In this document: one piece after another, positions 17,480-50,356 of the stretch
Position numbering within the stretch: position 1 is the stretch's first letter
How the letters are laid out: each line of letters opens with the position of its first letter
NCBI GenBank assembly: GCA_030429545.1
Contig: JAUIFF010000001.1
Location: 339,599 to 403,598, forward strand
DNA from: Polyangia bacterium
GTDB taxonomy: Bacteria > Myxococcota_A > Polyangia > Nannocystales > Nannocystaceae
DNA length: 64,000 nucleotides
Direction: 5' to 3'
Notes under the pieces: generated by a model
Databases searched by the model: none
What the model was told of the DNA's origin: nothing
Seen by the model: only the letters and a program-made list of their open reading frames with translations
Program-made: the position numbers and the translations under genes

Positions 17480-19087
17480 ATGGGCAATGGAAAACGGGAA
17501 AGTAAGTACGACTCTGGTAACGTTTGGACTACATGGCCGCGGCTGCTCGCGGTTGGGGTTGCAGCCTTGCTCCTGTCGCCCGTAGCAGCCTGCAGCAGTG
17601 GTGGAGATACAACCAGCGAAACACTTGGGACCGAGGGTCCGACAACCACGACGACGACCACAACCGCCGGGCCGGGAACAACCGACACCGACACCGACAC
17701 CGGGGCCGACACGGCTGCGACGGCGAGCGGGGGTGATTGCGGGAATGGCGAAGTCGACGAAGGCGAGGCCTGCGACGACGGTAACGATGACAACACCGAT
17801 TCGTGTCTCAACACCTGTGAGGAGGCAAGCTGCGGTGATGCGTTCGTGCAGGTCGGTGTCGAAGAGTGCGACGACGGCAACGACGACGACAGCGACTCCT
17901 GCACCAGCAACTGCCAGCTGCCAGTTTGCGGGGATATGATCGTCCAAGAGGGCGAGGAGTGCGACGACGGTAACGACGATGACACGGATGCTTGTACGAG
18001 CACGTGTGTGGCAGCAGCCTGCGGCGATGGTGTGGCCCAAGAGGGCGAAGAGTGTGACGACGGCAACACTGAAGACACCGACGAGTGCACCAACGCCTGC
18101 ACACTGCCAGTGTGCGGTGACGGTGTGGTGTCGAACGGTGAAGAGTGCGACGACGGCAATGCCGAAGATACCGACGCCTGCACCATGGAGTGCGTCGCCG
18201 CAGTCTGTGGCGACGGGATCGTGTGGGAAGGAACCGAGGCCTGCGACGACGGCAACGATGTCGATGACGATGAGTGTTCCAATATGTGCGCCCTCGCCAG
18301 CTGTGGTGACGGCATCGTCCAGATGGGCGAGGAGTGTGACGACGGCAACGATGTCGACTCCGATGAGTGTCCGACCAACTGCCTCAACGCCGTCTGCGGC
18401 GATACTTTTGTCCAAGAAGGGGTCGAGGATTGCGATGATGGCATGGAGTCGGAGATGTGCGACGGCGACTGCACGGCTGTGGAGTGTGGTGATGGCCTAG
18501 CCAACACGCTCGCGGGCGAGGAGTGCGACGACGGAAACGACGACGATACCGATGAGTGCGTTTCCGGTTGTGTCGCCGCGACCTGCGGTGACGGGTTCGT
18601 GCAGGACGGAGTCGAAGAGTGCGACGATGGCAACGAAAACAACGACGACGCGTGCACCAATGATTGTATGCTCAATCAAATCAACATCACCATGAGCTGC
18701 AACCAGGGGCAGGATTGCCAGCAAGAGTGCAACCCGTGGAACTCGTTCCGCTCCAGCCTCACAGGCGGTACCTACTCGGCAGTCACCCTCCGGGGCAGCT
18801 CGGACATGGTCGGTCAAACCTGCTCCAATCCAGCCCTTGCCAACCAGATTTGCAACAACCTCGCCACCGGCACGGCAACCAACGTCCAGTGCGACGGTCG
18901 AACCTGGCGAATCGGTAACTGCGGAGCAGGCGTGGAGATCAACGCCAACGGCAACATGTGTAGCTGCGCAGCCGGATGGGTGGTGCGCCCCTGCATCAAC
19001 CAAGGCAATCCCAACTGGGGCGGCATGAACACGGCGACCTGTAATAGTCCAACACAGACGCTCGAAGTCATCTGTTTTGGCGGCTAG
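17480..19087 (+). CDS. lipoprotein made of tandem Myxococcus-type cysteine-rich repeats ([27 protein letters not shown])
   Basis: Signal with lipobox-like VAACSS. Thr-rich spacer. About 11 consecutive roughly 40-aa repeats carrying ECDDGN(D/T)xDTD(A/E)C...C(V/L)xAxCGDG. Cys-rich non-repeat C-terminal domain. Antisense ORFs 17420..18415 and 17443..18675 are mirror artefacts. Confidence 0.7.
17750..18660 (+). repeat. coding tandem repeat array (about 120-nt period) encoding the cysteine-rich repeats
   Basis: Recurrent gagtgcgacgacggcaacga... / tgcggcgatgg... units are visible at nucleotide level. Confidence 0.6.
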
Positions 19088-21641: not shown

Positions 21642-22598
21642 CTATGCATGATTTTCGCGGGGGACGATGTTGTAGGCCGTGCGCAGCTCATCGCATGTGC
21701 GGGCAAAGTCGTCCCACGGCTGCCAACCCAGGCACAGCTGCTTGGTCACCTTGCTGCCCCGGACGTACCCTCGCAGCAGGCGTGCCGGATCTTTGAGTGC
21801 CATCTTTGTGGGTTTGTCGACCGGGGTCACGCGCAGGCCGAGTTGGAATTGTGCCAGGGCAAAGAACATGGAGAACACCGGGTCCTTGGTGATATTCGCC
21901 GCCTGGAACGCGACAATTTCGCATTCTTCTGCCGCGCTGGTTCCGTATTCGCCGAGGACGTGGAGGCAGTCGTGAAACACGATTGGCTCGGGTGGACCTC
22001 CTTTTTCACCCGGCAGGGCAAACCCGTTTTCCCGGGTAAACCGGTAGTATTCACGGCCGAGCGTGCCCTTGGGGTAGTCGGCGAGGGCCTGGTAACGCGC
22101 CGCGAGTTTGGGGTCGGGGATGTTGGCCACGCTTTTGAACAGGGTCACAGCGCCGGCGAGTCCCCGGGTTTTGACAAACTCGATCGCACGTTGGCCTGAG
22201 AACCCGCGGCGGACCGTGTCGAGCCGAAACAGCGTGGCCCAGCCGTGGGCGAGGCGCTCGACATCGGTGACCGCTTGGCTGTCGATTTCCAAGGCGTCGG
22301 CCAGCTGTCGCAGGATCTTGCCTTCGTTTTTGGTCGCCTCGCCATCGATCAACGCGACGACGATCGCGGCATTGAGCATACGTTCGCGAAATGGGCCCTC
22401 CGGGACGATGTCGGCGAGCTCTTCGGGCGTAATCGGCAACAGGGCATCGAGGTCGAAGTCTGTGTGGAGGATGTACTCTTGGGCCGCGTTGAGCAGGTCG
22501 TACTCTAATTCGTGGAAGTGGCCATCGGCCAGGGCGACACCCTTGAGGGCGCGCAGGGCTGCATGGGCAACAGGACGGGGAGGGGTGATGGTGTACAT
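21642..22598 (-). CDS. hypothetical protein: TerB-like N-terminal domain fused to a Coq4-like domain (HDxxH-x11-E)
   Basis: ATG at 22598 (MYTITPP...) verified. The N-terminal roughly 120 aa shows the TerB-like pattern (...LADGHFHELEYDLLN...LIDGEATKNEGKIL...). The C-terminal region has FHDCLHVLGEYGTSAAEECE, which matches the Coq4 zinc motif HDxxH(x)11E. Divergent from an AraC-family regulator gene. Confidence 0.5.
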   Translation of the reverse strand: MYTITPPRPVAHAALRALKGVALADGHFHELEYDLLNAAQEYILHTDFDLDALLPITPEELADIVPEGPFRERMLNAAIVVALIDGEATKNEGKILRQLADALEIDSQAVTDVERLAHGWATLFRLDTVRRGFSGQRAIEFVKTRGLAGAVTLFKSVANIPDPKLAARYQALADYPKGTLGREYYRFTRENGFALPGEKGGPPEPIVFHDCLHVLGEYGTSAAEECEIVAFQAANITKDPVFSMFFALAQFQLGLRVTPVDKPTKMALKDPARLLRGYVRGSKVTKQLCLGWQPWDDFARTCDELRTAYNIVPRENHA

Positions 22599-22746
22599 GA
22601 CAATGGCTCCTTCTCGCCAGTTTCGCGGCCAGCGAATGCGGCGCGGTGACTGGTGATTTGAGGATGGGGCGAGCACTGGCCACGCGGTAGGACCGGATGC
22701 GCCAGAGATTGAACAGTTCGCGCCATCGCCCCGGTACAATCGACCG

Positions 22747-23796
22747 ATGCCGAACCAGGCCACTGGCGGTCGGGAGACGATCCTGGCGAGCTTTGCCAGC
22801 TCGCTGTTGGCATTTGTGCGCGCGCGCAAGCTGCCCGAGGTTCGGTTTTATGAGTTGGCCACGAAGTATGGCGAGCGGCCGGAAAATTGGCATGAACGCG
22901 ACCGACGTGTACCGCTCGGGTTGGTCCGCGAAGCCTGGGAGTGGCTGGCCGAAACCTGCCCGGGCCCGATCGGGCTCGAGATGGCCCAGTACTTTGCCGG
23001 CTTACAAACCCAGGGACCGGTTGGCATTGCGGCCGCGCTCGCACCAGACCTCAAAACCGGGCTCGAAGTGTTTGTCCGCTACCAGTCGGTCTTGCGTGTG
23101 CTCCGAACATCGAGTTTTCGCATGCAGGACACCGAAATCGGGAGCGTGGTGCACATCGACTATGACTATGGCCTGAGTTTCGCAATCCCACGGATCGTCG
23201 AGTTTGCAGCCGCGCTCACCCTGTTGTTTGCCCGCGAGCTGAGCCAAGACAGCTCTGTTGTTCCGCGAACCGTTCAGTTTGCACATACATGTGTTGGCAT
23301 GCCTCAAGACTACCGGCAACACTTTGGGGTCGATGTTTCATTTGCGGCCGCCAACAATGCGATGACCTTCGACCCGGCCACACTCGCCACCGTGTTGCCA
23401 ACCGCAAAACCCGAGGTTCTGCACTACCTGCGACAGCACTTGGAGAGGGTCAAACAGCAACTAGAGCCCCAGGCAGGCGATGCGCTGGCCGAGGTGCGAC
23501 GGGCTGTTGCCGAGCACGCTGCCCGCGGGGAGTTTCGCGGCGAGATCATTGCCAAGAGTTTAGGGGTCTCCCTTCGCAGCCTCCAGCGGCGGGTCCACGC
23601 CAGCGGGACATCGTTGCGGGCACTTGTCGACGAAACCCGATTGGTCCACGCCCGCGAGCTGTTGACCAATGCCAAGCTGTCGACCGAGGAGGTTGCGTTT
23701 TTACTGGGGTACTCCGAGTTGCGGAGTTTTAATCGTGCGTTCAAACGCTGGACCGGGCGGACCCCAGCACAGTTTCGCAGGGGCAAATATATGTAG
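22747..23796 (+). CDS. AraC-family transcriptional regulator (N-terminal AraC-binding-like domain plus C-terminal HTH)
   Basis: C-terminus ...LSTEEVAFLLGYSELRSFNRAFKRWTGRTPAQFRR is the canonical AraC HTH_18 signature. Confidence 0.75.
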   Translation: MPNQATGGRETILASFASSLLAFVRARKLPEVRFYELATKYGERPENWHERDRRVPLGLVREAWEWLAETCPGPIGLEMAQYFAGLQTQGPVGIAAALAPDLKTGLEVFVRYQSVLRVLRTSSFRMQDTEIGSVVHIDYDYGLSFAIPRIVEFAAALTLLFARELSQDSSVVPRTVQFAHTCVGMPQDYRQHFGVDVSFAAANNAMTFDPATLATVLPTAKPEVLHYLRQHLERVKQQLEPQAGDALAEVRRAVAEHAARGEFRGEIIAKSLGVSLRSLQRRVHASGTSLRALVDETRLVHARELLTNAKLSTEEVAFLLGYSELRSFNRAFKRWTGRTPAQFRRGKYM

Positions 23797-23819: not shown

Positions 23820-24050
23820 TTACCCACTCGGCGGCGTGTACTCAAAGACATGTTCGAGCGGGACCCCAAACACCGTGGCAATGCGAAACGCGACCTCGAG
23901 AGATGGGGAGTATTTGTTGCCCTCGATCGCGTTGACGGTTTGCCGGGTCACCCCGATCGCGTCGGCGAGCTGCTGTTGGGTCATCGCGTCGTGCTCAAAT
24001 CGCAGGCGGCGGATGTTGTTGGTAATCGTCGACTTTGGCTTGCGCCCCAT
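23820..24050 (-). CDS. XRE-family (Cro/C1) HTH transcriptional regulator
   Basis: ATG at 24050 verified ([71 protein letters not shown]). Classic short HTH_3 protein. Start immediately follows the stop of the upstream membrane-protein gene. Confidence 0.75.
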
Positions 24051-24052
24051 CG

Positions 24053-24472
24053 CTAAAAACCTCGGCGGTAGTACAGCAGCTGCAGCGCGGCCTTGAGTAA
24101 CTCGGCCAAAAACAGCGAGAGCAGCAACAGGTGGGCGACCCAGACATTCGGCACGGCGACGACCATCGCGCTGATACCCGCGAGAATACCGACCCCGACC
24201 AGCCACGAGGCATTGGCCTCGGCCCGCCAGGCGATCAGGCGGTCGCGTTCATCGCGTTCGTCGGCCCGTCCGAGGACTTTGGCGGCGATACTACCCGCGG
24301 CGATCAGGGCGACCTGCACAACCACTGCAATTGTAAACAGGGGCACGTAGGCCACCAAATTCGTCACGCCAGCACGCAACATCGAGCCGGCGACCACAAA
24401 GTAGATACCGAGTGCGAGCAGCAGCGCAATCATGTTGACCCAGACGATTCGCTCTTCAAAAGATGTGTTCAT
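24053..24472 (-). CDS. DUF2178-like small integral membrane protein (partner of the XRE regulator)
   Basis: Four hydrophobic helices with a conserved charged loop ([17 protein letters not shown]). A co-oriented, nearly overlapping arrangement with a short XRE HTH gene is the usual DUF2178 plus HTH pair. Assignment from memory. Confidence 0.6.
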
Positions 24473-24741: not shown

Positions 24742-27700
24742 CTAGAATTTTGCCGAGGTGAACACCGGGTCGAGTTGACCAAAGCCAACAAACTCTTGCG
24801 ATTGGTGCGAGAGCAGGCGTTCGCGGATAAACCGGTGGTCGGCCACGGCTTCGCCGACGAGCAGCTTGACGACTTCGCGTGGCCGGACACCACCCTCGGC
24901 GCCCATGCGTAGGCGAAACCGCAGCAGGCTCGCGTCGCGATCGAGGCTGGCCGACAGCAGGTGCGGGCGGATATCGACCTGCACGGTCTCGGGAGCCTGT
25001 GTATGTGCATGCTTACGCAGGCGTTTGCCGCGTTTTTTGCGTTTGCGCGGTCGCTCGACAAACAGCGACTCGGCACGTAGGTGCTCTTCGAGGGTTTGCG
25101 CGACCTTCTGTGCCTGATCGGGGCCGAGCGCGACGGCGTAATCGGCCGCGTCGACAAGCGCACCGGCCTTGCGCTCGCCCGGGCTCAAAAGCCGCAATCC
25201 GACCAACACAAGCCCGGGAGGTGCAACCTCACGGAGCTTCTCCAAAACCTCGTCGGCGCGTTGCTGGCGAAGTTCGTCGGTCCACATCCCGGCCATGTCG
25301 CGGTCGGAGTCGGGCAGCAAGATCGCGAGGTCGACAACTTCTTCGAGTGCAGCCATGCCCAGCGGTAGGGCTGGCCCAAAGCTCATACGCGGCGTCGGGT
25401 TGAAGCCGCGGGTAAAGCCCATTTCAATCCGGGCCCGCCGCAGCATCCGCGGAATGATGCGGACGAGGTCGAGGTGGCCCATGAAACACATGCTCCCCTG
25501 CTTGGCAAACAGCAGGCGCGCACGGCTGTACGGGGCCTCAGCGTTTTCGCGGTACATGTGGTCGGCCGGCAACTTGCTGGGACTCAGCCGCCCCTTGAGC
25601 CGGGACAACGGGACGATGTCGCCAGCTGGTGGGGCGCTTGGCTCCTCGGGGTCTTGTTGTACTTGCACGGTTTCCAGGGTGCGCAGCGCTTCGATCCGTT
25701 CGCTGCGCATCTCAGACATATCGCAGGCAATTCCGCAGTCGTAGCACACCAGCCGCCGGGCGTCGTTTTCGGCCTCGGGGCGGTTGGTGTGATGGACCTG
25801 GGCACCAAACGGCTTGCCGCACGGGGGCGAGTGCCGGCTTTTGAGGGCCTTGCGGTACTCGTCGGCCAAAAACCCGGGCTCGAGCCCAATGTCGATGTGG
25901 TCCCACGGCAGGCGGGCGTCGACGGGAATGGTGCCGGTGTATAGGCTGGGCTCGATCCCCGCGCCTTCGAGGGCGTCGAGCCAGCGTTGAAACGAGAAGC
26001 ACTCGCGCCAGCCCTCAAACCTCGAACCTGCCTTATAGGCCAGCTCCAAGGCCTCGCCCATGCGCCGGTCGCCACGGGCAAACAAACACTCGAGCCAGCT
26101 CTCCTCTTGGTTGTGGGTTTTGAGCGAAACCTTGGCCCGCTTGGCGAGGTCTCGCAGCATCGCAACTTTGCTGCGCAGGTCGCTGAGGTTGTCCATCGCC
26201 GCCCACTGAAACGGGGTATGCGGTTTGGGCACGTGCTGCGAAACAGAGCAGGTCACCGAGGGCACGCGGTCGAGCTTTAACTCGCGGGCGAGCTGGCGAA
26301 CCTTGCGACCGGTTTCGATAATGCCGACGACGTCCTCCTCGGTCTCGGTCGGCAAACCCATAATAAAGTACATCTTGATGCGGTCGTAGCCGCGTTCAAA
26401 GATCCGCCGGGCAGAGGTCAGGATGTCCTCGTCGCTGACGTTTTTGTTGATGACGTTGCGCATCCGCTGGGTGCCGGCCTCGGGGGCAAACGTGAGGCCG
26501 TTGATGCCCACGGTTTTGATCTCGTCGAGCAGGGATTCGTCGAGCCCATAGGCACGCAGGCTGGCGACCCCGAGTTTGACCTTGCGCTTGCGCAACTCCG
26601 GGGTGAGGGCCTTGATCAGCGGATTGATGCACGAGACATCGGCGGTGCTCAGGGCGGTGAGGCTGGTTTCGGAAAACCCGGCATTGTCGACCCCGTCGAG
26701 CACGGCCTTGACGACCGCATCGGGGCTGCGCTCACGGACAGGTCGGTAAATGATGCCGGCCTGGCAAAATCGGCAGCCCTCGGTACAACCGCGGGTAATT
26801 TCGACACTGGCGCGGTCGAAGATAGCCTCGGCGTAGGGCACCGGAAAGTCGGTCGGAAACGGATATTTGTCGAGGTCGCGCACCCACACCCGGCCAATGG
26901 TTTTTGGTGCATCTGCATCGATACCCGCCTGGGTGCGACCGACCACGACCTGCAGTGAGCTGCGCGGGTCGATCTCGACGCGATAAAATGCGGGGACATA
27001 GATGCCCGGGACCCGGGCGCAGGCGGCCAAAACTTCGGCCCGCGTCTTGCCGGCACGGCGCATCTTGCCGATCAGGCGCAGCAGGTCGGGGAGCACTTCC
27101 TCGGCCTCTCCCACCAAAAACAGGTCGATAAACGCGGCCAGTGGCTCAGGGTGGGTCGCCGTGGGCCCCCCGGCAATGACGATCGGGTGGGCGTCGTTGC
27201 GATCGGCACTGCGAAGCGGCACCCCCCCTAAGTCGAGGTTTTGCAGCACGTTGGTGTAACACAACTCATATTGCAGGCTCACGCCGACAACATCGAACGC
27301 GTGCAGGGGCAGGGCGTTTTCGAGGCTCACCAGCGGCAGGTTGCGGGCGCGCAGCTCGGCCTCGACATCTACCCACGGGCTAAACGAGCGCTCACAGGCG
27401 AGGTCTTCGTGTCCGTTGATCAACTTGTAGATGATCTTGGTGCCGAGGTGGCTCATCCCAACTTCGTAGAGGTCTGGAAACGCGAGCACAAACCGACAGG
27501 CAAGGTCGGCGGTGAGCGGTTTGACGGTTTGTTGCTCCTCGCCCCCGAGGTAGCGCCCGGGCTTGGCCATCCGCCCTAAGAACTCAGCATAGGGGTGACC
27601 CGCCAGAACATGGGTGGCCGGCAGGGCGTCGAGGTTGCGATCTTCGACCTCGGAGCCAGAAGTTGTCGTGGGTTGGGATAGGTGTGCCATAGCCGCAACC

Positions 27701-27756
27701 GCCCTTGTGCCACAAACCGAGCAGCGATTCCATGTCTGCCGCCGTGACACAGCCAC
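24742..27756 (-). CDS. fused radical SAM protein: B12-binding-like N-domain plus radical SAM core (TIGR03960-type) plus C-terminal DUF2344/TIGR03936-type domain
   Basis: CTEGCRFCQAG (CxxxCxxC) radical SAM cluster motif. N-terminal region shows the B12-binding-like TIGR03960 pattern. A long C-terminal extension (...FMGHLDLVRIIPRMLRRARIEMGFTRGFNPTPRMSFGPALPLG...) is typical of the radical-SAM-linked DUF2344 protein. An alternative start at 27690 (MAHLSQ) was verified. Confidence 0.85.
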   Translation of the reverse strand: MAVSRRQTWNRCSVCGTRAVAAMAHLSQPTTTSGSEVEDRNLDALPATHVLAGHPYAEFLGRMAKPGRYLGGEEQQTVKPLTADLACRFVLAFPDLYEVGMSHLGTKIIYKLINGHEDLACERSFSPWVDVEAELRARNLPLVSLENALPLHAFDVVGVSLQYELCYTNVLQNLDLGGVPLRSADRNDAHPIVIAGGPTATHPEPLAAFIDLFLVGEAEEVLPDLLRLIGKMRRAGKTRAEVLAACARVPGIYVPAFYRVEIDPRSSLQVVVGRTQAGIDADAPKTIGRVWVRDLDKYPFPTDFPVPYAEAIFDRASVEITRGCTEGCRFCQAGIIYRPVRERSPDAVVKAVLDGVDNAGFSETSLTALSTADVSCINPLIKALTPELRKRKVKLGVASLRAYGLDESLLDEIKTVGINGLTFAPEAGTQRMRNVINKNVSDEDILTSARRIFERGYDRIKMYFIMGLPTETEEDVVGIIETGRKVRQLARELKLDRVPSVTCSVSQHVPKPHTPFQWAAMDNLSDLRSKVAMLRDLAKRAKVSLKTHNQEESWLECLFARGDRRMGEALELAYKAGSRFEGWRECFSFQRWLDALEGAGIEPSLYTGTIPVDARLPWDHIDIGLEPGFLADEYRKALKSRHSPPCGKPFGAQVHHTNRPEAENDARRLVCYDCGIACDMSEMRSERIEALRTLETVQVQQDPEEPSAPPAGDIVPLSRLKGRLSPSKLPADHMYRENAEAPYSRARLLFAKQGSMCFMGHLDLVRIIPRMLRRARIEMGFTRGFNPTPRMSFGPALPLGMAALEEVVDLAILLPDSDRDMAGMWTDELRQQRADEVLEKLREVAPPGLVLVGLRLLSPGERKAGALVDAADYAVALGPDQAQKVAQTLEEHLRAESLFVERPRKRKKRGKRLRKHAHTQAPETVQVDIRPHLLSASLDRDASLLRFRLRMGAEGGVRPREVVKLLVGEAVADHRFIRERLLSHQSQEFVGFGQLDPVFTSAKF

Positions 27757-27808: not shown

Positions 27809-28768
27809 GTGAAGGACCTGTATCAGACCCTAGGCGTGTCTAAGGATGCCGACGCCCGCGAGATCAAGCGGCGCTATCGCAAGCTGACCCAGAAGTACCA
27901 CCCCGACAAAAATCCGGGGAACAAGCAGGCCGAAGAGAAGTTCAAAGATGTCTCGACGGCCTACGACGTGCTCGGCGATCCGGACCGGCGCAAGCTCTAC
28001 GACGAATTTGGCGAGATGAGCCTCACCCAGGGCTTCGACCCCGAGCGTGCCCGTGCCTACCAACAGGCCCGGTCGGGGTTCGGCGGCGGTGGTGGCGGAT
28101 TCCCGGGCGGGATGAACTTCTCCAACTTCGGCGACGCCTCAAACGCGAGCTTCGACGACATCCTCTCCCAACTTTTTGGCGGCGGGCGGGTGCGTTCGCC
28201 AGGCGCAAGCGGCATGGGTCAACGTCCGCGCAAGGGGCAAAACATCGAGGGTGAAATCTCGGTGAAGTTTCTCGATGCCCTGCGCGGCACCAAGGTCCCG
28301 CTGCGAATTGACTCGTCGCAGGGGGGGGCCCGCACACTCGATGTCCGGGTGCCGCCGGGGATGGCCGACGGCGGAAAGCTGCGTGTGCGCGGCAAGGGAG
28401 GGCCAGGCAATCCGCCCGGCGACATCATCCTGACGGTTCATGTCAAAACCCACCCCTACCTCCGGCGCGAGGGCGCCAACCTCCATATGGATGTCCCGGT
28501 GACAGCGCTCGAGGCCTACCGCGGCGGGCCGATCGATGTGCCCACACCGTGGGGGACAGTTACTCTAAAATTGCCAGCAGGGGCACAAAGCGGGCAGAAA
28601 ATGCGGCTTCGCGGCAAGGGGGTCAAGGTCGGCAAGCGCGACCCCGGCGACTTGTTTTTGCATCTACAAATTAAACTGCCCGAGCCCGGGGATGAACGCC
28701 TCGCCGAGTTGCTCGAGGAGTTGCAAGCGGGCGAGAAGGTGCGCTCAAAGCTCGACTTCGGCGAGTAG
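27809..28768 (+). CDS. J-domain chaperone (DnaJ class II/CbpA-like; no zinc-finger domain)
   Basis: J-domain DLYQTLGVSKDADAREIKRRYRKLTQKYHPDKNPGN with the HPD motif. Gly/Phe-rich linker, then a DnaJ C-terminal substrate-binding domain. No CxxCxGxG repeats. Confidence 0.8.
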   Translation: MKDLYQTLGVSKDADAREIKRRYRKLTQKYHPDKNPGNKQAEEKFKDVSTAYDVLGDPDRRKLYDEFGEMSLTQGFDPERARAYQQARSGFGGGGGGFPGGMNFSNFGDASNASFDDILSQLFGGGRVRSPGASGMGQRPRKGQNIEGEISVKFLDALRGTKVPLRIDSSQGGARTLDVRVPPGMADGGKLRVRGKGGPGNPPGDIILTVHVKTHPYLRREGANLHMDVPVTALEAYRGGPIDVPTPWGTVTLKLPAGAQSGQKMRLRGKGVKVGKRDPGDLFLHLQIKLPEPGDERLAELLEELQAGEKVRSKLDFGE

Positions 28769-40416: not shown

Positions 40417-41733
40417 TTACTCTAAAAACTCCCGCTCGACCTGGGCGTAGTCGACCTCGCAGTTTAGGCGGGCAAGCACCGAATAGAAGCCAAACTGCAA
40501 CCGGTTCATAAAAAACACACCCTCGGGAAACGGGACAAAGTTGTCGTCGCGATCGCGCAGGGTCGAACCGGCGATGTTGCGCACCTCGTGGACCAGGGCG
40601 GTGACATAGGGCCGAGTGATCCGATAGGGCGAGGCAAATTGTGGCATGAATGCGTTGCGCATATAGGAAAGGGCACGTTTTTCGTAGGCGCCGCCACGGG
40701 TTTCGAGCACGAGTTTGGCCGTTTCAAAAAATGTATGCTCGTCGCCGCGACAGGCCGCCAGATGCATGCGCACCGCGAGGTCCTGGCGGTGTTCGGTCAC
40801 CGGTTGAACACAGCCAAAGTCGATAAACGCAACCCCGCCATCGGCCTGAAAAAAGTAGTTCCCGGGGTGGGGATCGGCGTTGAACATCCCCCCCAAAATT
40901 GTCGCTTTGTAGACAAATCGCCACAGGGCTGCGGCCCATTGCGCGCGCAGTGCCTCGGGCTGGGTGCGGGCAGTATCGAAGTCAAAGCCCTCGACAAACT
41001 CAGTTGTCAGTACCCGGCGCCCACTGTGGCTGGGAATCACCGCGGGGATGCGGATAGCCGGATCATTGGCGTGAACGGTTGCAAATGCAAGTTGTCGCTC
41101 GGCCTCTAGGCGGTAGTCGAGCTCCTCGCGAAATCGTGTGCGAATCTCCTCGAGCATGCGCTTGGAGTCGAACTTGCGGGCACCGATCATGGCGATGGCC
41201 CCCTCGACCAGCCCCGCGTTTTTGAGGTCGTTTTCGACGGCCTGGGCAATTCCCGGGTGCTGGACCTTGACTGCAACTTCGCGGCCATCGTGCAGGCGCG
41301 CGCGGTGGACCTGGCCGATCGATGCACTTGCAATCGGTTTGGGATTCCACCACGCAAACAGCTCAGATACCGGTTTGCCGAGCTCCTCGACAAGCTGGGC
41401 TTCGATAGCTTCGGGCGGCGAGGTCGTGGTCGCGGCCAACAACTTTTTCATGTGGCGCTCATACCCGTCGCGGTGCTCCTCGGGAATCACACCATCGACA
41501 TAGCTGGCCATCTGTCCGAGTTTGGTCGCCAACCCGCGAAGGTTGCCAAGGGTGCGGGCCGCAGCAATCGCGGCGTCTTCGGAGTTGCGACCGAGCAACA
41601 GGTTGGCCCCGGAGCGCGCCCCGGTAGCTGCGAGTCGGGCGAGTCGACCGAGGCGACTACGCGGAAGTTTGCGGTCCGACATGGGGCGGAGTATCGGCGA
41701 TTCGACCCGGGTGCCAACTGTAAAAGAGCTCAC
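40417..41733 (-). CDS. ABC1/UbiB/ADCK-family atypical kinase
   Basis: [16 protein letters not shown]..., [26 protein letters not shown], and [12 protein letters not shown]...GGVAFIDFG are the hallmark ABC1 kinase motifs. Confidence 0.8.
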
Positions 41734-47162: not shown

Positions 47163-48179
47163 CTATCTGGGTGATGGCGAGCCGAGCGTGTCGGCGAACA
47201 ACTCGGGGAACACGTTGGCGACCTTGGCCGTGAGATAGGCCCCGTAGGTGCCTTGGTGGTCCATCGGGTCGTGGTTGTCCCAGCGTTTGCGGTGCTCGGG
47301 CGGCGGCGGTCCAAGGTGTTGTAATGGCGCGAGCTGGTCCGGGGTTGCCTCCCAGTCTGGGTCGTAAAAATAGGCGAGTGAAACCCGACCTGGGCCGTCG
47401 GTTCCAACCTGAGCGTGCACGCGGTGGGGCGTTGAACGGTAGTGCCCGTTGGTCAGCCGCTCGAGCATGTCGCCTAGGTTGCACACAAGTGTGCCGGGCA
47501 CGGGTGGCACCGCGGTCCAACCGGCAGGGGTGTGAACCTCGAGACCACCACGTGTATCTTGGCAAAGTACGGTGAGTAATCCGTAATCGGTATGCTCGGC
47601 CACCCCCCAATGGTTGGGGTTGTGACCGGTACGGGCCGGATAGTGGAAGATGCGAAACAGGGTTGTCGGGTCGTGGGTGAGTCCGCAGGCGAAGTAGTCG
47701 CTGGCAAGCCCGAGGCCGCGGGCCATACCCGATAAAAGTGTAGCTGCAAGCGACTGCATGGCCGCGAGGTAGCGGGCGACGAGCTCGGCGAGTTCGGGAA
47801 CCTCGCTTGGAAACGGGTTGGGGCCGTGCAGTGGGGTTTGGGCGCGAACTTTGGGGTGCCCAGTTGGTAGGTGCTTGCCGAAGTAATAACCCTCTTTTTG
47901 GTCGGGCACACCCGAGGTCAACTCACCACCCACGGGAAACCACCCGCGCCATGCCGGGCCAAAGTGGTGCATGGCAACGGCTGCTTTGCGAGCGGGTGGC
48001 AGGGCAAAAAACCTTCGTGCCGCCTGGTCGAGCGCCGCGATGAGTTTGGGGCAGACGCCGTGATTGTGCACCAAGAAAAACCCCGATTGCCGACAGGCTT
48101 GGTCGAGTGAGCGCGCGACCACGTCGTGTGCATTCGCAGGGCCGTCGAGCAGTGGGCCAATGTCGACAAGCGGCAGCAT
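47163..48179 (-). CDS. 2-oxoglutarate/Fe(II)-dependent oxygenase (isopenicillin-N-synthase-like family)
   Basis: N-terminal DIOX_N-like MLPLVDIGPLLDG...QACRQSGFFLVHNHGV. Core HTDYGLLTVLCQD (the HxD motif), distal His in ...GHYRSTPHRVHA..., and the RxS-type region. Confidence 0.8.
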   Translation of the reverse strand: MLPLVDIGPLLDGPANAHDVVARSLDQACRQSGFFLVHNHGVCPKLIAALDQAARRFFALPPARKAAVAMHHFGPAWRGWFPVGGELTSGVPDQKEGYYFGKHLPTGHPKVRAQTPLHGPNPFPSEVPELAELVARYLAAMQSLAATLLSGMARGLGLASDYFACGLTHDPTTLFRIFHYPARTGHNPNHWGVAEHTDYGLLTVLCQDTRGGLEVHTPAGWTAVPPVPGTLVCNLGDMLERLTNGHYRSTPHRVHAQVGTDGPGRVSLAYFYDPDWEATPDQLAPLQHLGPPPPEHRKRWDNHDPMDHQGTYGAYLTAKVANVFPELFADTLGSPSPR

Positions 48180-48199
48180 CTATACAGTGTACCTACAAC

Positions 48200-49063
48200 T
48201 TAGCCTGGTAGCCGGCCGTCGGTACCAAAGGTGCGTTCGGGGTTGCGCAGGTGTTCACAAAGTCTTGAAAGGATTCGACCACACATCACACCGTCGACAA
48301 TGCGGTGGTCAAACGTGTAGCTAAACGGCAGCATTGGACGTACTTTGGCTTCGCCGGCGACCGCGATTGCCTCGTGCTGGACGGGCAAAATGCCGACAAA
48401 GCTCCCGAGGCCAAAAAACCGTCGGGGTGGTGTAAACGATGCTGCCCGCGAGACCACGCCGCCAGGGACATTGAGGGTGGAGCCCAAATTGGAAACAAGC
48501 GCCGTCATCGGGTAGACCCGATGAAATTGCCGATACAACGGAAGTTGCTGGCTGGCGGCATCGAGTACGTCGAGCGTGCGGTGTAGCAGGCGGGTAGGGA
48601 TGTGCCGCGCCAATGGCATCAGTCGTAAAAATAAGGGGTTGGGCGTGGCCGAATCTCGGTAGTCTTGGACCCGCCCCGAAACGCGTTCGGCGATGTCTCG
48701 CAGCGAGCGGGTCTCGCATTTGGTGACCAGCACCGCACTCAGCTCGGCCTTGCCACCACCCCCCTTGGCCGCCCCGAGGTCGATCGGCACAGCGATGCCA
48801 ACGTGCTCGTGGCGGACGATTCGACGCCCGACCACGGAGGCATTGACCACGGGAAATTCACGGTAGACCCGCGACAGCGCAGCCATAAATAGGTGTTGCA
48901 CAGTGACCCGCGGCAGCACGTTGGAGGCGTTGAGCTGCTGGAGGTAGGCCTGGGCCTCCGTGAACTCGACGGCGCAACTAAATGACGCGTAGGGCGAAAA
49001 TGGAGGGTACTTGAAGTACCACAGCATCGCCTTGCGAATCACTGAGAGGGGCAGGACCTCCAT
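48200..49063 (-). CDS. stand-alone 2-oxoacid-dehydrogenase-type (E2 catalytic domain) acyltransferase-family protein
   Basis: C-terminus ...SYTFDHRIVDGVMCGRIL... carries the catalytic DHRxxDG motif of E2/CAT-fold acyltransferases. No lipoyl or E1/E3-binding domains. Separated by only 20 bp from the oxygenase gene and co-oriented with it. Confidence 0.65.
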   Translation of the reverse strand: MEVLPLSVIRKAMLWYFKYPPFSPYASFSCAVEFTEAQAYLQQLNASNVLPRVTVQHLFMAALSRVYREFPVVNASVVGRRIVRHEHVGIAVPIDLGAAKGGGGKAELSAVLVTKCETRSLRDIAERVSGRVQDYRDSATPNPLFLRLMPLARHIPTRLLHRTLDVLDAASQQLPLYRQFHRVYPMTALVSNLGSTLNVPGGVVSRAASFTPPRRFFGLGSFVGILPVQHEAIAVAGEAKVRPMLPFSYTFDHRIVDGVMCGRILSRLCEHLRNPERTFGTDGRLPG

Positions 49064-49205
49064 GGTGATGGCATTGTATGCGGGGTTGCCAACAATCCGC
49101 CAGCCCGCTCCCCGAAGTCAGGCGCTGAGCAGTTTGCTGGCGGTCAAGTGCGGGATTGCCAACAATTCGCTGGCCGGGACCCCGGGGTGTGCCGAGGACG
49201 CGAAC

Positions 49206-49400
49206 GCAGCTCGGCCAGCTCGACCAGCTCGACTAGCTCGACCAGCTCGACCAGCTCGATCAGCTCGGCCGGCTCGGCCAGCTCGGCCAGCTCGGCCAGC
49301 TCGACCTGCTCGACCTGCTCGACCTGCTCGACCTGCTCGACCTGCTCGACCTGCTCGACCAGCTCGACCAGCTCGACCAGCTCGACCAGCTCGACCAGCT
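49206..49400. repeat. 9-bp microsatellite (tcgRccNgc)n of about 21 units inside a divergent promoter region
   Basis: Three sub-blocks: tcgRccagc x10, tcgacctgc x6, tcgaccagc x5. Followed by 2x ttggacatg(c/g). Lies in the 468-bp gap between divergent gene starts 49063 (-) and 49532 (+). Read as plus-strand codons it would encode (PAR)n. Confidence 0.8.
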
Positions 49401-49531
49401 TGGACATGCTTGGACATGGACCGAGCGCGCTCCGGAGCGGCAGTGCCGGAGATCCCGCAGGCGAGCAAACGCGTGGATTTTTTGGAGCCGCGGGCGAGCT
49501 GACGTAGGCGTAGGGGGCGAGGTTTTTTCCC

Positions 49532-50338
49532 ATGCGTGACGTGCATAAGTGGAAGGACAAAGTCGAGTTTTCCCTCGACAACCGTCAGATCTTCTTTTTG
49601 TTCTTCGGCCTTTCGGTCGTTGGCTGTTTTGTCTTTGCCCTCGGCGTAATGGTTGGGCGGCGCGGGGACGATGCTCCCAAGATCGCCCGTGCCCAGCAGG
49701 ACGCTCTCGGCCTGCTTGCCGGCGTCGACGAGACAACCCCGGCTGAGCCCGCCGAACAGGTTGGGTTTTCGTTTAAGGAAGGGCTCGCGCAGTCGGCTGC
49801 GGCCGACCTGCCGGAAACCCGAGACCCAGAGGTTCCGCCCCAGCACGACAAGGCCAAGGCCAAGGTCAAGGCAAAGGTCGAGGACAAAGCCAAAAAACCG
49901 GCCAAGCCGGAGCCCAAAAAGCCCCAGCCGCTGTTGGCCAAAAACAACAAGCCAAAGCCGGTGGCCAAACCCCTGCCTGCCGCCCTGCCAAAGCCGCCTG
50001 CAGCCAAGCCCAAGCCACCTACGGTCAAGCCCGAAAATAAGCCTAAGCCCGCGGCGATTCCGGCCAAGGCAACACCCGAGGCGGCGATCCAAAAGCCCAA
50101 GTCGGCCTCCGGGTTTACGTTGCAGATGAAGGCGTTTGCCAACCAGGCCGATGCCGACAAGCTCGCTGACAAACTGCGGCGAAACGGGCACGACGTTCGG
50201 GTCGAGACCGCCGATGTTCGCGGGCGCCTGTGGTACCGCGTGCGCGTGGGTAACTTCACCAAGTGGGACGATGCCCTCATGGCCAAAAAGAAGTTCGAAG
50301 AGGCCGAGTCGGTGATCGCCTACGTCGTCCGTATGTAG
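49532..50338 (+). CDS. SPOR-domain protein (FtsN/DedD-like; TM anchor, Lys/Pro/Ala-rich linker, C-terminal peptidoglycan-binding SPOR domain)
   Basis: TM FFLFFGLSVVGCFVFALGVMV. Long KPxP/AKxK low-complexity linker. C-terminal ...GFTLQMKAFANQADADKLADKLRRNGHDVRVETADVRGRLWYRVRVGNFTKWDDA... is the SPOR pattern. Confidence 0.75.
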   Translation: MRDVHKWKDKVEFSLDNRQIFFLFFGLSVVGCFVFALGVMVGRRGDDAPKIARAQQDALGLLAGVDETTPAEPAEQVGFSFKEGLAQSAAADLPETRDPEVPPQHDKAKAKVKAKVEDKAKKPAKPEPKKPQPLLAKNNKPKPVAKPLPAALPKPPAAKPKPPTVKPENKPKPAAIPAKATPEAAIQKPKSASGFTLQMKAFANQADADKLADKLRRNGHDVRVETADVRGRLWYRVRVGNFTKWDDALMAKKKFEEAESVIAYVVRM

Positions 50339-50356
50339 ATGCAAATATTTCAACAA

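Follow-up and report, generated by a model that had tools for sequence, protein, structure and literature searches.

A TerB-Coq4-like fusion protein from a Polyangia bacterium belongs to a large bacterial family of putative metalloproteins

A stretch of 64,000 nucleotides from a Polyangia bacterium of the Nannocystaceae (GenBank contig JAUIFF010000001.1, positions 339,599 to 403,598 of the forward strand; hereafter the window) contains a gene for a 318-residue protein, which belongs to a so far uncharacterised variant of the Coq4 superfamily that carries a fused TerB domain. Its C-terminal 200 residues are a divergent Coq4 superfamily member with a complete HDxxH-x11-E motif and an upstream LPxGTLG motif; its N-terminal 117 residues form a TerB-type helical bundle that retains the paired acidic motifs. 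Across a large bacterial family this fusion is conserved, and it is the ancestral state. Judged from sequence and structural model, the product is best explained as a soluble or peripheral-membrane, all-helical, two-domain metalloprotein; by analogy with eukaryotic COQ4, it is tentatively proposed to use a metal to decarboxylate a lipophilic hydroxy-aromatic acid, possibly in an oxidative manner, a function to which we give somewhat less than an even chance.

The first-pass annotation, made from the DNA letters, had proposed a TerB N-domain joined to a Coq4-like C-domain, and this architecture is supported by the sequence itself, by a family profile and by structure prediction. In Pfam searches the TerB family (PF05099) matches at 36 bits, above its cutoff of 24.4, and the Coq4 family (PF05019) at 22.5 bits against a gathering score of 22.9 (E = 7.7e-5), with an aligned part restricted to residues 169-193; the Coq4 half of the window protein thus falls just short when searched singly, yet a Coq4 match at E <= 0.01 is found in 35 of 36 diverse relatives (best 4.8e-7). 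A TerB match is present in 34 of the same 36 (best 1.3e-12). Against the Protein Data Bank, the family profile finds the TerB structure 2OU3 (E = 3e-6), and also Alr8543 (6E12; 3.3e-4) and a Nostoc punctiforme protein (3MSQ; 8.9e-4); the alignment to the latter two runs from LPxGTLG, through an HD motif in register, to a C-terminal LRxxYNIxP. Differently from the fusion, both are single-domain proteins of about 225 residues without TerB, structural-genomics targets of unknown function, solved with Mg and oleic acid. The AlphaFold2 model built from the alignment is all helical, with a pLDDT (predicted local distance difference test) of 93.5 and a pTM (predicted template modelling score) of 0.90; this pTM predicts, with high confidence, that the two domains pack together into a single globule. 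The C-domain shows the Coq4 fold as in 6E12 and 3MSQ and the N-domain the TerB helical-bundle fold, whose acidic repeats read ADGxxxxxE (D25, G26, E32) and IDGEAxxxE (D85, E92) in the window protein.

The string FHDCLHVLGEYGTSAAEECE, which had been cited from the C-terminal region, is found in the protein, and the exact HDxxH-x11-E spacing claimed for this region is present as H209, D210, H213 and E225. These four residues are invariant in an alignment of 36 sequences sharing 37-59% identity, so that the motif is not a chance match; the exact pattern recurs in 379 of the 384 genuine family members retrieved. It stands in register with the HDIWH/HDIYH...E of the Alr8543 and Nostoc punctiforme homologues, and in Alr8543 the motif Asp and Glu coordinate metals beside a hydrophobic tunnel (PMC10680789). 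The model places H209, D210 and H213 in one helix (204-216) and E225 at the first turn of the next (222-234), a predicted placement that corresponds to the Coq4 hairpin arrangement. The in-register alignment with Alr8543, together with this helix placement, suggests that the four residues converge on one metal site. Just upstream of the HD motif, P196-G197-E198 and E204 are invariant and specific to the family.

The family is large. A word-indexed search retrieved full-length relatives of about 312-342 residues, many of which carry both Pfam labels, in 363 clusters (90% identity). In an exhaustive hidden Markov model (HMM) search with the C-domain only, the number of clusters (50% identity) was 236 at E <= 1e-30 and rose to 734 at 1e-10 and to 1284 at 1e-3. 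Almost all of the 150 best HMM matches are 310-335 residues long, with the C-domain starting near residue 118. Matches of 229-255 residues, candidates for close relatives devoid of TerB, begin within the second TerB repeat and were rejected as truncated gene calls. The fusion architecture is real, old and already known to databases, where its members are named "ubiquinone biosynthesis protein COQ4", "TerB family tellurite resistance protein" or "hypothetical". The earlier statement that it was not a described architecture is overstated as regards the databases, where hundreds of proteins of this family have the fusion as their usual form and bear both labels. In the library searched, we found no paper on the fusion, nor any linking Coq4 with a TerB domain or, in this sense, with Nitrospira.

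A scan of one genome per species returned 131 relatives. The best 80 of these comprise 47 from Nitrospira or Nitrospiraceae, including Candidatus N. defluvii, 24 from Myxococcota (Polyangiaceae, Kofleriaceae, Nannocystaceae, Byssovorax and Polyangium jinanense), 3 from Cyanobacteriota, 2 from Planctomycetota, 1 from Acidobacteriota and 3 unlabelled or mislabelled. The closest relatives among the matches listed are from metagenome-assembled genomes (MAGs) of Polyangiaceae, at 59% identity. A search started from the Synechococcus CS-1332 protein extended the fusion to Cyanobium, freshwater Synechococcus, Vulcanococcus, Nodosilinea, Binatia and further Myxococcota. The neighbour-joining tree is at odds with taxonomy: the Myxococcota are spread over at least four clades, and the window protein belongs to one dominated by Polyangia. 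In the clade of cyanobacteria and Binatia the first TerB acidic motif is degenerate and the Coq4 motif intact, which argues that it is the C-domain that carries the conserved function. As a separate observation, one 90%-identity cluster (P0098, a Nitrospira fusion) also lists DedA/rhodanese proteins of 318-319 residues without the motif, that is, the product of the adjacent gene; this mixed cluster looks like a clustering or look-up artefact of the protein collection.

The catalytic role of COQ4 was established only in 2024. According to Pelosi et al., COQ4 binds about two Zn through the HDxxH-x11-E motif, its D164A substitution abolishes function and leaves complex Q undisturbed, and the protein rescues both ubiD and ubiH defects of E. 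coli in an O2-dependent manner and leads to polyprenyl-1,4-benzoquinone in Corynebacterium glutamicum (PMC10680789). Nicoll et al. found that ancestral COQ4 acts in vitro as a Zn-dependent C1 decarboxylase and that mutations in the motif abolish the activity (PMC7615680). Bacterial homologues of Coq4 are known in proteobacteria and cyanobacteria (PMC5714133). The window protein shares with human COQ4 and yeast Coq4 (PF05019) the all-helical fold, LPxGTLG and the exact HDxxH-x11-E. It differs from them in several respects: the similarity is borderline, there are about 8 residues fewer before HD, partners of the COQ metabolon are missing, and a TerB domain occupies the place of the mitochondrial presequence and N-region; moreover, the fusion occurs in lineages that lack a ubiquinone pathway in a genome survey.

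On the analogy with COQ4, a Zn or binuclear metal centre would be formed by H209, D210, H213 and E225, perhaps together with the family-invariant E198 and E204. From the membrane this centre would receive a lipophilic 4-hydroxy-aromatic acid, probably a prenylated one, and bind its carboxylate; the carboxyl group would then be removed, possibly oxidatively with O2. Rather than conferring tellurite resistance, the TerB module may be a fixed lid with a role in structure or in association with membrane or metal.

Several observations weigh against assigning such a decarboxylase activity. The Coq4 score of the window protein lies slightly below the Pfam gathering score over a short alignment, and in the profile alignment the approximately 8 residues that precede HD in Alr8543 are deleted in the fusion family. 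The crystals of Alr8543 itself contained Mg and oleic acid rather than a quinone precursor, and we know of no bacterial Coq4 homologue that has ever been assayed. The chemistry of COQ4 is also disputed, a Zn-dependent decarboxylase (PMC7615680) having been proposed on one side and an O2-dependent oxidative decarboxylase (PMC10680789) on the other. Furthermore, when E. coli UbiA, UbiC, UbiD, UbiX, UbiE, UbiH, UbiI, UbiJ, UbiB and MenA were used as tblastn queries against 84 family loci and the 64-kb window, no homologue of UbiA/MenA, UbiC, UbiD, UbiX or UbiH was found within 10 kb of any of these loci or in the window. The matches obtained were limited to the distant UbiB of the window, methyltransferases of a generic kind and, in a single locus (L017), a UbiI-like flavoprotein 6 kb off; co-localisation with quinone genes was rejected, as nothing relevant emerged. 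A scattered location is normal for quinone genes, and the lack of linkage is therefore uninformative rather than refuting. Finally, a genome survey found ubiquinone pathways to be essentially limited to Pseudomonadota and Myxococcota to be annotated with menaquinone pathways (Men or futalosine), so that prenyl-4-hydroxybenzoate is not an expected substrate in the organism of the window.

The oleic acid bound in the hydrophobic tunnel of the structural homologues would also agree with a non-catalytic role, in which the C-domain binds an isoprenoid or fatty chain plus a metal and the TerB domain tethers the protein to a membrane partner, as an organiser of a complex. Coq4 was long seen as the organiser of complex Q, no enzymatic partner or operon is conserved around the fusion gene, and TerB domains elsewhere (the DjlA N-domain and DUF533, to both of which the fusion protein has weak matches) are membrane-associated modules. 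However, the four metal ligands are invariant across phyla, as is typical of a catalytic site, the ligands of COQ4 are required for activity and not for complex assembly, and the decarboxylase activity of COQ4 has been demonstrated in vitro; a scaffold of this kind is regarded as a rather unlikely explanation.

The surroundings of the relatives were analysed by all-against-all clustering of the open reading frames (ORFs) from the 84 loci and by Pfam scans of 30 putative operon partners. Conserved neighbours are confined to Nitrospira and represent within-genus synteny; outside this genus, the neighbours recurring among the 84 loci are antisense shadow ORFs and generic families only. Functional inference from operons was thus rejected, since no partner recurs beyond the Nitrospira synteny. 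In the Nitrospira block a DedA/VTT-rhodanese fusion protein is encoded immediately upstream (L005 6992-7951 and 21 Nitrospira loci, e.g. L032 8796-9929), a GAF-sigma54 activator further up and an RND (resistance-nodulation-division) efflux system downstream, consisting of membrane fusion protein, pump and outer-membrane efflux protein; genes for pirin, DSBA, DoxX and glyoxalase are located further up as well. This block may be an island for redox or chalcogen stress, or no more than synteny at the genus level.

An uncharacterised S-adenosylmethionine (SAM) methyltransferase of about 240 residues is encoded beside the fusion gene, on the same strand, in 16 Nitrospira genomes (L030 11033-11749, L063 10191-10979, L025 9124-9846 and 13 others): in 10 loci its gene is downstream with a gap of 9-73 bp, in 2 it is about 107 bp upstream, and in 4 it is farther off. 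It matches Methyltransf_25/11 and TPMT (34 bits against 26), and in NCBIfam gives weak, generic matches only, including UbiE and UbiG. Because the adjacency is kept despite changes in gene order, it hints at a functional pair in Nitrospira. The putative operon partners of the family are otherwise mixed: isochorismatase, GlnA, DMT transporter, GNAT, PI-PLC, PLD, acyl-AMP ligase, SNF2 helicase, KatG and cNMP-PRK. In a 3.8-Mb myxobacterial MAG contig, and in this one lineage only, an isochorismatase-family hydrolase begins 15 bp after the fusion gene (L004/L009 8954-9508), a possible chorismate-derived theme. In one Polyangiaceae MAG a class-I methyltransferase is divergently adjacent (L046 3761-4609, minus strand); it is 46% identical to E. 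coli UbiE over a 54-residue SAM-binding stretch and, at the BLAST threshold used, shows no relation to the methyltransferase of Nitrospira. In Synechococcus sp. CS-1332 the gene for the catalase-peroxidase KatG (L084 5237-7483) precedes the fusion gene on the same strand, with a gap of 6 bp.

Some of these neighbours would suit a role in metal, chalcogen or redox stress, with which the "tellurite resistance" label would agree: both halves of the protein would bind metal, and it would serve to buffer, sense or detoxify metals, oxyanions of Se or Te, or reactive quinones. The conserved Nitrospira block, the TPMT-matching methyltransferase adjacent in either order in 16 Nitrospira loci, the KatG gene of Synechococcus CS-1332 and the intact TerB acidic motifs of the window protein are all in line with such a function. 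Conversely, the block is the synteny of one genus and does not recur in the myxobacterial, planctomycetal or cyanobacterial members, no TerC, TerD or TerZ lies near the window gene, and in the clade of cyanobacteria and Binatia it is the first TerB acidic motif that decays; we consider this role rather unlikely.

Within the decarboxylase assignment, a more specific proposal can be made, namely that the TerB-Coq4 family supplies the missing C1 decarboxylase, or an oxidative decarboxylase performing both steps, of those high-potential quinone pathways that have neither UbiD/UbiX nor a UbiH-type hydroxylase. The prenyl-FMN (prenylated flavin mononucleotide) decarboxylases UbiD/UbiX (MpqD/X, PlqD/X, MqnL/M) and the UbiH-type C1 hydroxylases would then be functional analogues of the fusion family, which has no sequence or fold relationship with them; the putative analogy is based on the replacement of UbiD and UbiH by COQ4 in E. 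coli and on the abundance of the fusion in Nitrospira, itself without MpqD/X and UbiH homologues. In their work on the methyl-plastoquinone pathway of aerobic Nitrospirota, Elling et al. reported that MpqD/X is absent from Nitrospira and Leptospirillum and that there is no UbiH homologue, leaving C1 hydroxylation unresolved. In the plastoquinone study, PlqD-X was absent in Prochlorococcus and PlqH weak or inactive in cyanobacteria of the PCC-6307 order, and its authors invoked a possible oxidative decarboxylase "as in eukaryotes", that is, COQ4-like. The pattern in Nitrospira and cyanobacteria fits this proposal circumstantially: the family is abundant in the former (47 of the best 80 among 131), it is present in Cyanobium and Synechococcus of the PCC-6307 type, and the methyltransferase adjacent in 16 Nitrospira genomes is what would be expected of a ring-tailoring pair. 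Against it, no Prochlorococcus or Leptospirillum member is found among the matches listed, and the phyla that carry the family include some whose annotated pathways are for menaquinone only. A missing C1 enzyme is a rather unlikely identity for the family, but it makes the family a concrete and testable candidate for the C1 gaps left by two 2025 papers, in Nitrospira and in cyanobacteria of the Prochlorococcus and Cyanobium type. If it were true, bacterial quinone synthesis would have a third, cofactor-light route to aromatic decarboxylation, quinone types could be better predicted from genomes, and the product of the enzyme in Myxococcota, Planctomycetota and Binatia would become a question; the myxobacterium of the window would have either an unrecognised prenylated phenol/benzoquinone or a futalosine-type naphthoate decarboxylation. 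If it were wrong, a large, well-folded, two-domain family of predicted metalloproteins would still stand, labelled in two contradictory ways in databases.

The window encodes an ABC1/UbiB kinase (40417..41733; 190 bits), and the Coq4 and Coq8 families cooperate in eukaryotic coenzyme Q synthesis, which might suggest a ubiquinone-pathway role of the fusion protein together with this Coq8-like kinase. Such a literal pairing is very unlikely: the two genes are separated by 18 kb that contain unrelated genes, the window has no other ubi gene, UbiB-type kinases belong to menaquinone (futalosine) pathways too, and in the genome survey ubiquinone pathways are found almost exclusively in Pseudomonadota. 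The kinase is thus a thematic link only, as had been noted at the outset.

The TerB domain had also been taken to recall stress and phage-defence systems. As compared with other members of the TerB family (PF05099; 2OU3, COG3793; PG1108, 2H5N; the DjlA N-domain; DUF533), the TerB domain of the fusion lies outside a ter operon, with no TerC, TerD or TerZ nearby, and is permanently fused to, and predicted to be packed against, an enzyme-like domain. Among the window ORFs scanned between 15 and 52 kb no TerC, TerD, TerZ or TerA was found, nor was a conserved partner of this kind in the 84 loci, and PADLOC gave no match for the fusion protein, the neighbouring AraC-type protein or the M23 peptidase; the suggestion of stress or phage defence is thereby not borne out. 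A Ter-type or phage-defence module under AraC control could draw on the TerB domain and on an XRE-type regulator (23820..24206) that has generic HTH matches in PADLOC, but it is hardly credible for a chromosomal, vertically widespread gene without conserved partners, whose contexts are scattered and housekeeping-like and whose flanking genes, as the fusion protein itself, find no PADLOC match.

The features of the window locus are collected in Table 1. The listed ORF spans 21642..22829 (minus strand) and encodes 395 residues when read from TTG; judged from the sequence, the true start is the ATG at 22598, giving a protein that begins with MYTITPP..., because all 35 aligned homologues start at the equivalent M-x-L-x-x-P-P and an AAGGAG precedes this codon. 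The gene is served by a ribosome-binding site of its own and shares no operon with a conserved partner. It is followed by an M23 peptidase gene, and upstream lie the genes for the AraC-type protein, a small XRE regulator, a membrane protein, a radical-SAM/DUF2344 protein and DnaJ; a protein identical to that of the window (P0001) is flanked by the same neighbours in public assemblies.

Table 1. Coordinates of the fusion gene, its domains and its divergent neighbour in the window
Feature	Position	Strand	Basis
TerB-Coq4-like fusion gene, 318 residues, stop codon included	21642..22598	-	ORF, homologue alignment, ribosome-binding site
N-terminal TerB domain, residues 1-117, two helical repeats	22248..22598	-	Pfam, profile, model
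C-terminal Coq4-like domain, residues 118-318, LPxGTLGxxY-type motif at residues 172-184	21645..22247	-	Pfam, profile, model
Motif H209-D210-C-L-H213-x11-E225 (HDxxH-x11-E)	21924..21974	-	translation HDCLHVLGEYGTSAAEE
Shine-Dalgarno AAGGAG, 8 nt upstream of ATG 22598	22607..22612	-	read from sequence; graded strong
Divergent intergenic region between fusion gene and AraC gene, 148 bp	22599..22746	.	sequence
AraC/XylS-family regulator, 349 residues, Arabinose_bd + HTH_18	22747..23796	+	Pfam; unit membership tentative

The divergent AraC gene noticed in the first-pass annotation is real, and the top NCBIfam match of its product is QhpR-like, at 160 bits and under the cutoff of 250. Its reading as a sign of inducible control does not generalise: an AraC gene stands beside relatives in only one of about 30 non-Nitrospira loci (L065), where it is of the DUF6597 type and of a different subfamily, no AraC cluster is found among the 84 loci, and the closest relatives (59-53% identity) have other neighbours. 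A conserved AraC regulator was therefore rejected, the neighbour being specific to the window genome; transcription of the fusion gene may be under its control there, as a local arrangement. In the spacer between the two genes no sigma-70-like promoter and no terminator was detected, and its inverted repeats are weak, with nothing above chance; an operator, promoter or terminator in this region was thus dropped from consideration.

Beyond the AraC gene, positions 23820-24472 (minus strand) encode a 139-residue multi-pass membrane protein followed directly by the small XRE/HTH_3 regulator, a two-gene unit between the AraC and radical-SAM genes. The regulator is 76 residues long in public gene calls, and its 128-residue ORF (23820..24206) is an over-extension. 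The radical-SAM protein (24742-27756, minus strand) has about 1000 residues and the domains Radical_SAM_N2, Radical_SAM and DUF2344; the DnaJ/CbpA-type gene at 27809-28768 adjoins it, and both are kept in the identical public contigs. On the other side, the gene at 17480-19087 (plus strand) encodes a protein with DUF4215, a myxobacterial cysteine-rich repeat; together with the Polyangiaceae relatives of the fusion protein, it supports an origin of the window in Myxococcota, probably Polyangia. Farther away, at 47163-50356 (minus strand), a 2OG-Fe(II) oxygenase (DIOX_N and 2OG-FeII_Oxy), a protein with a 2-oxoacid-dehydrogenase-type acyltransferase domain and a collagen triple-helix-repeat protein are encoded in a row, which may represent an arrangement of a hydroxylase with its collagen-like substrate.

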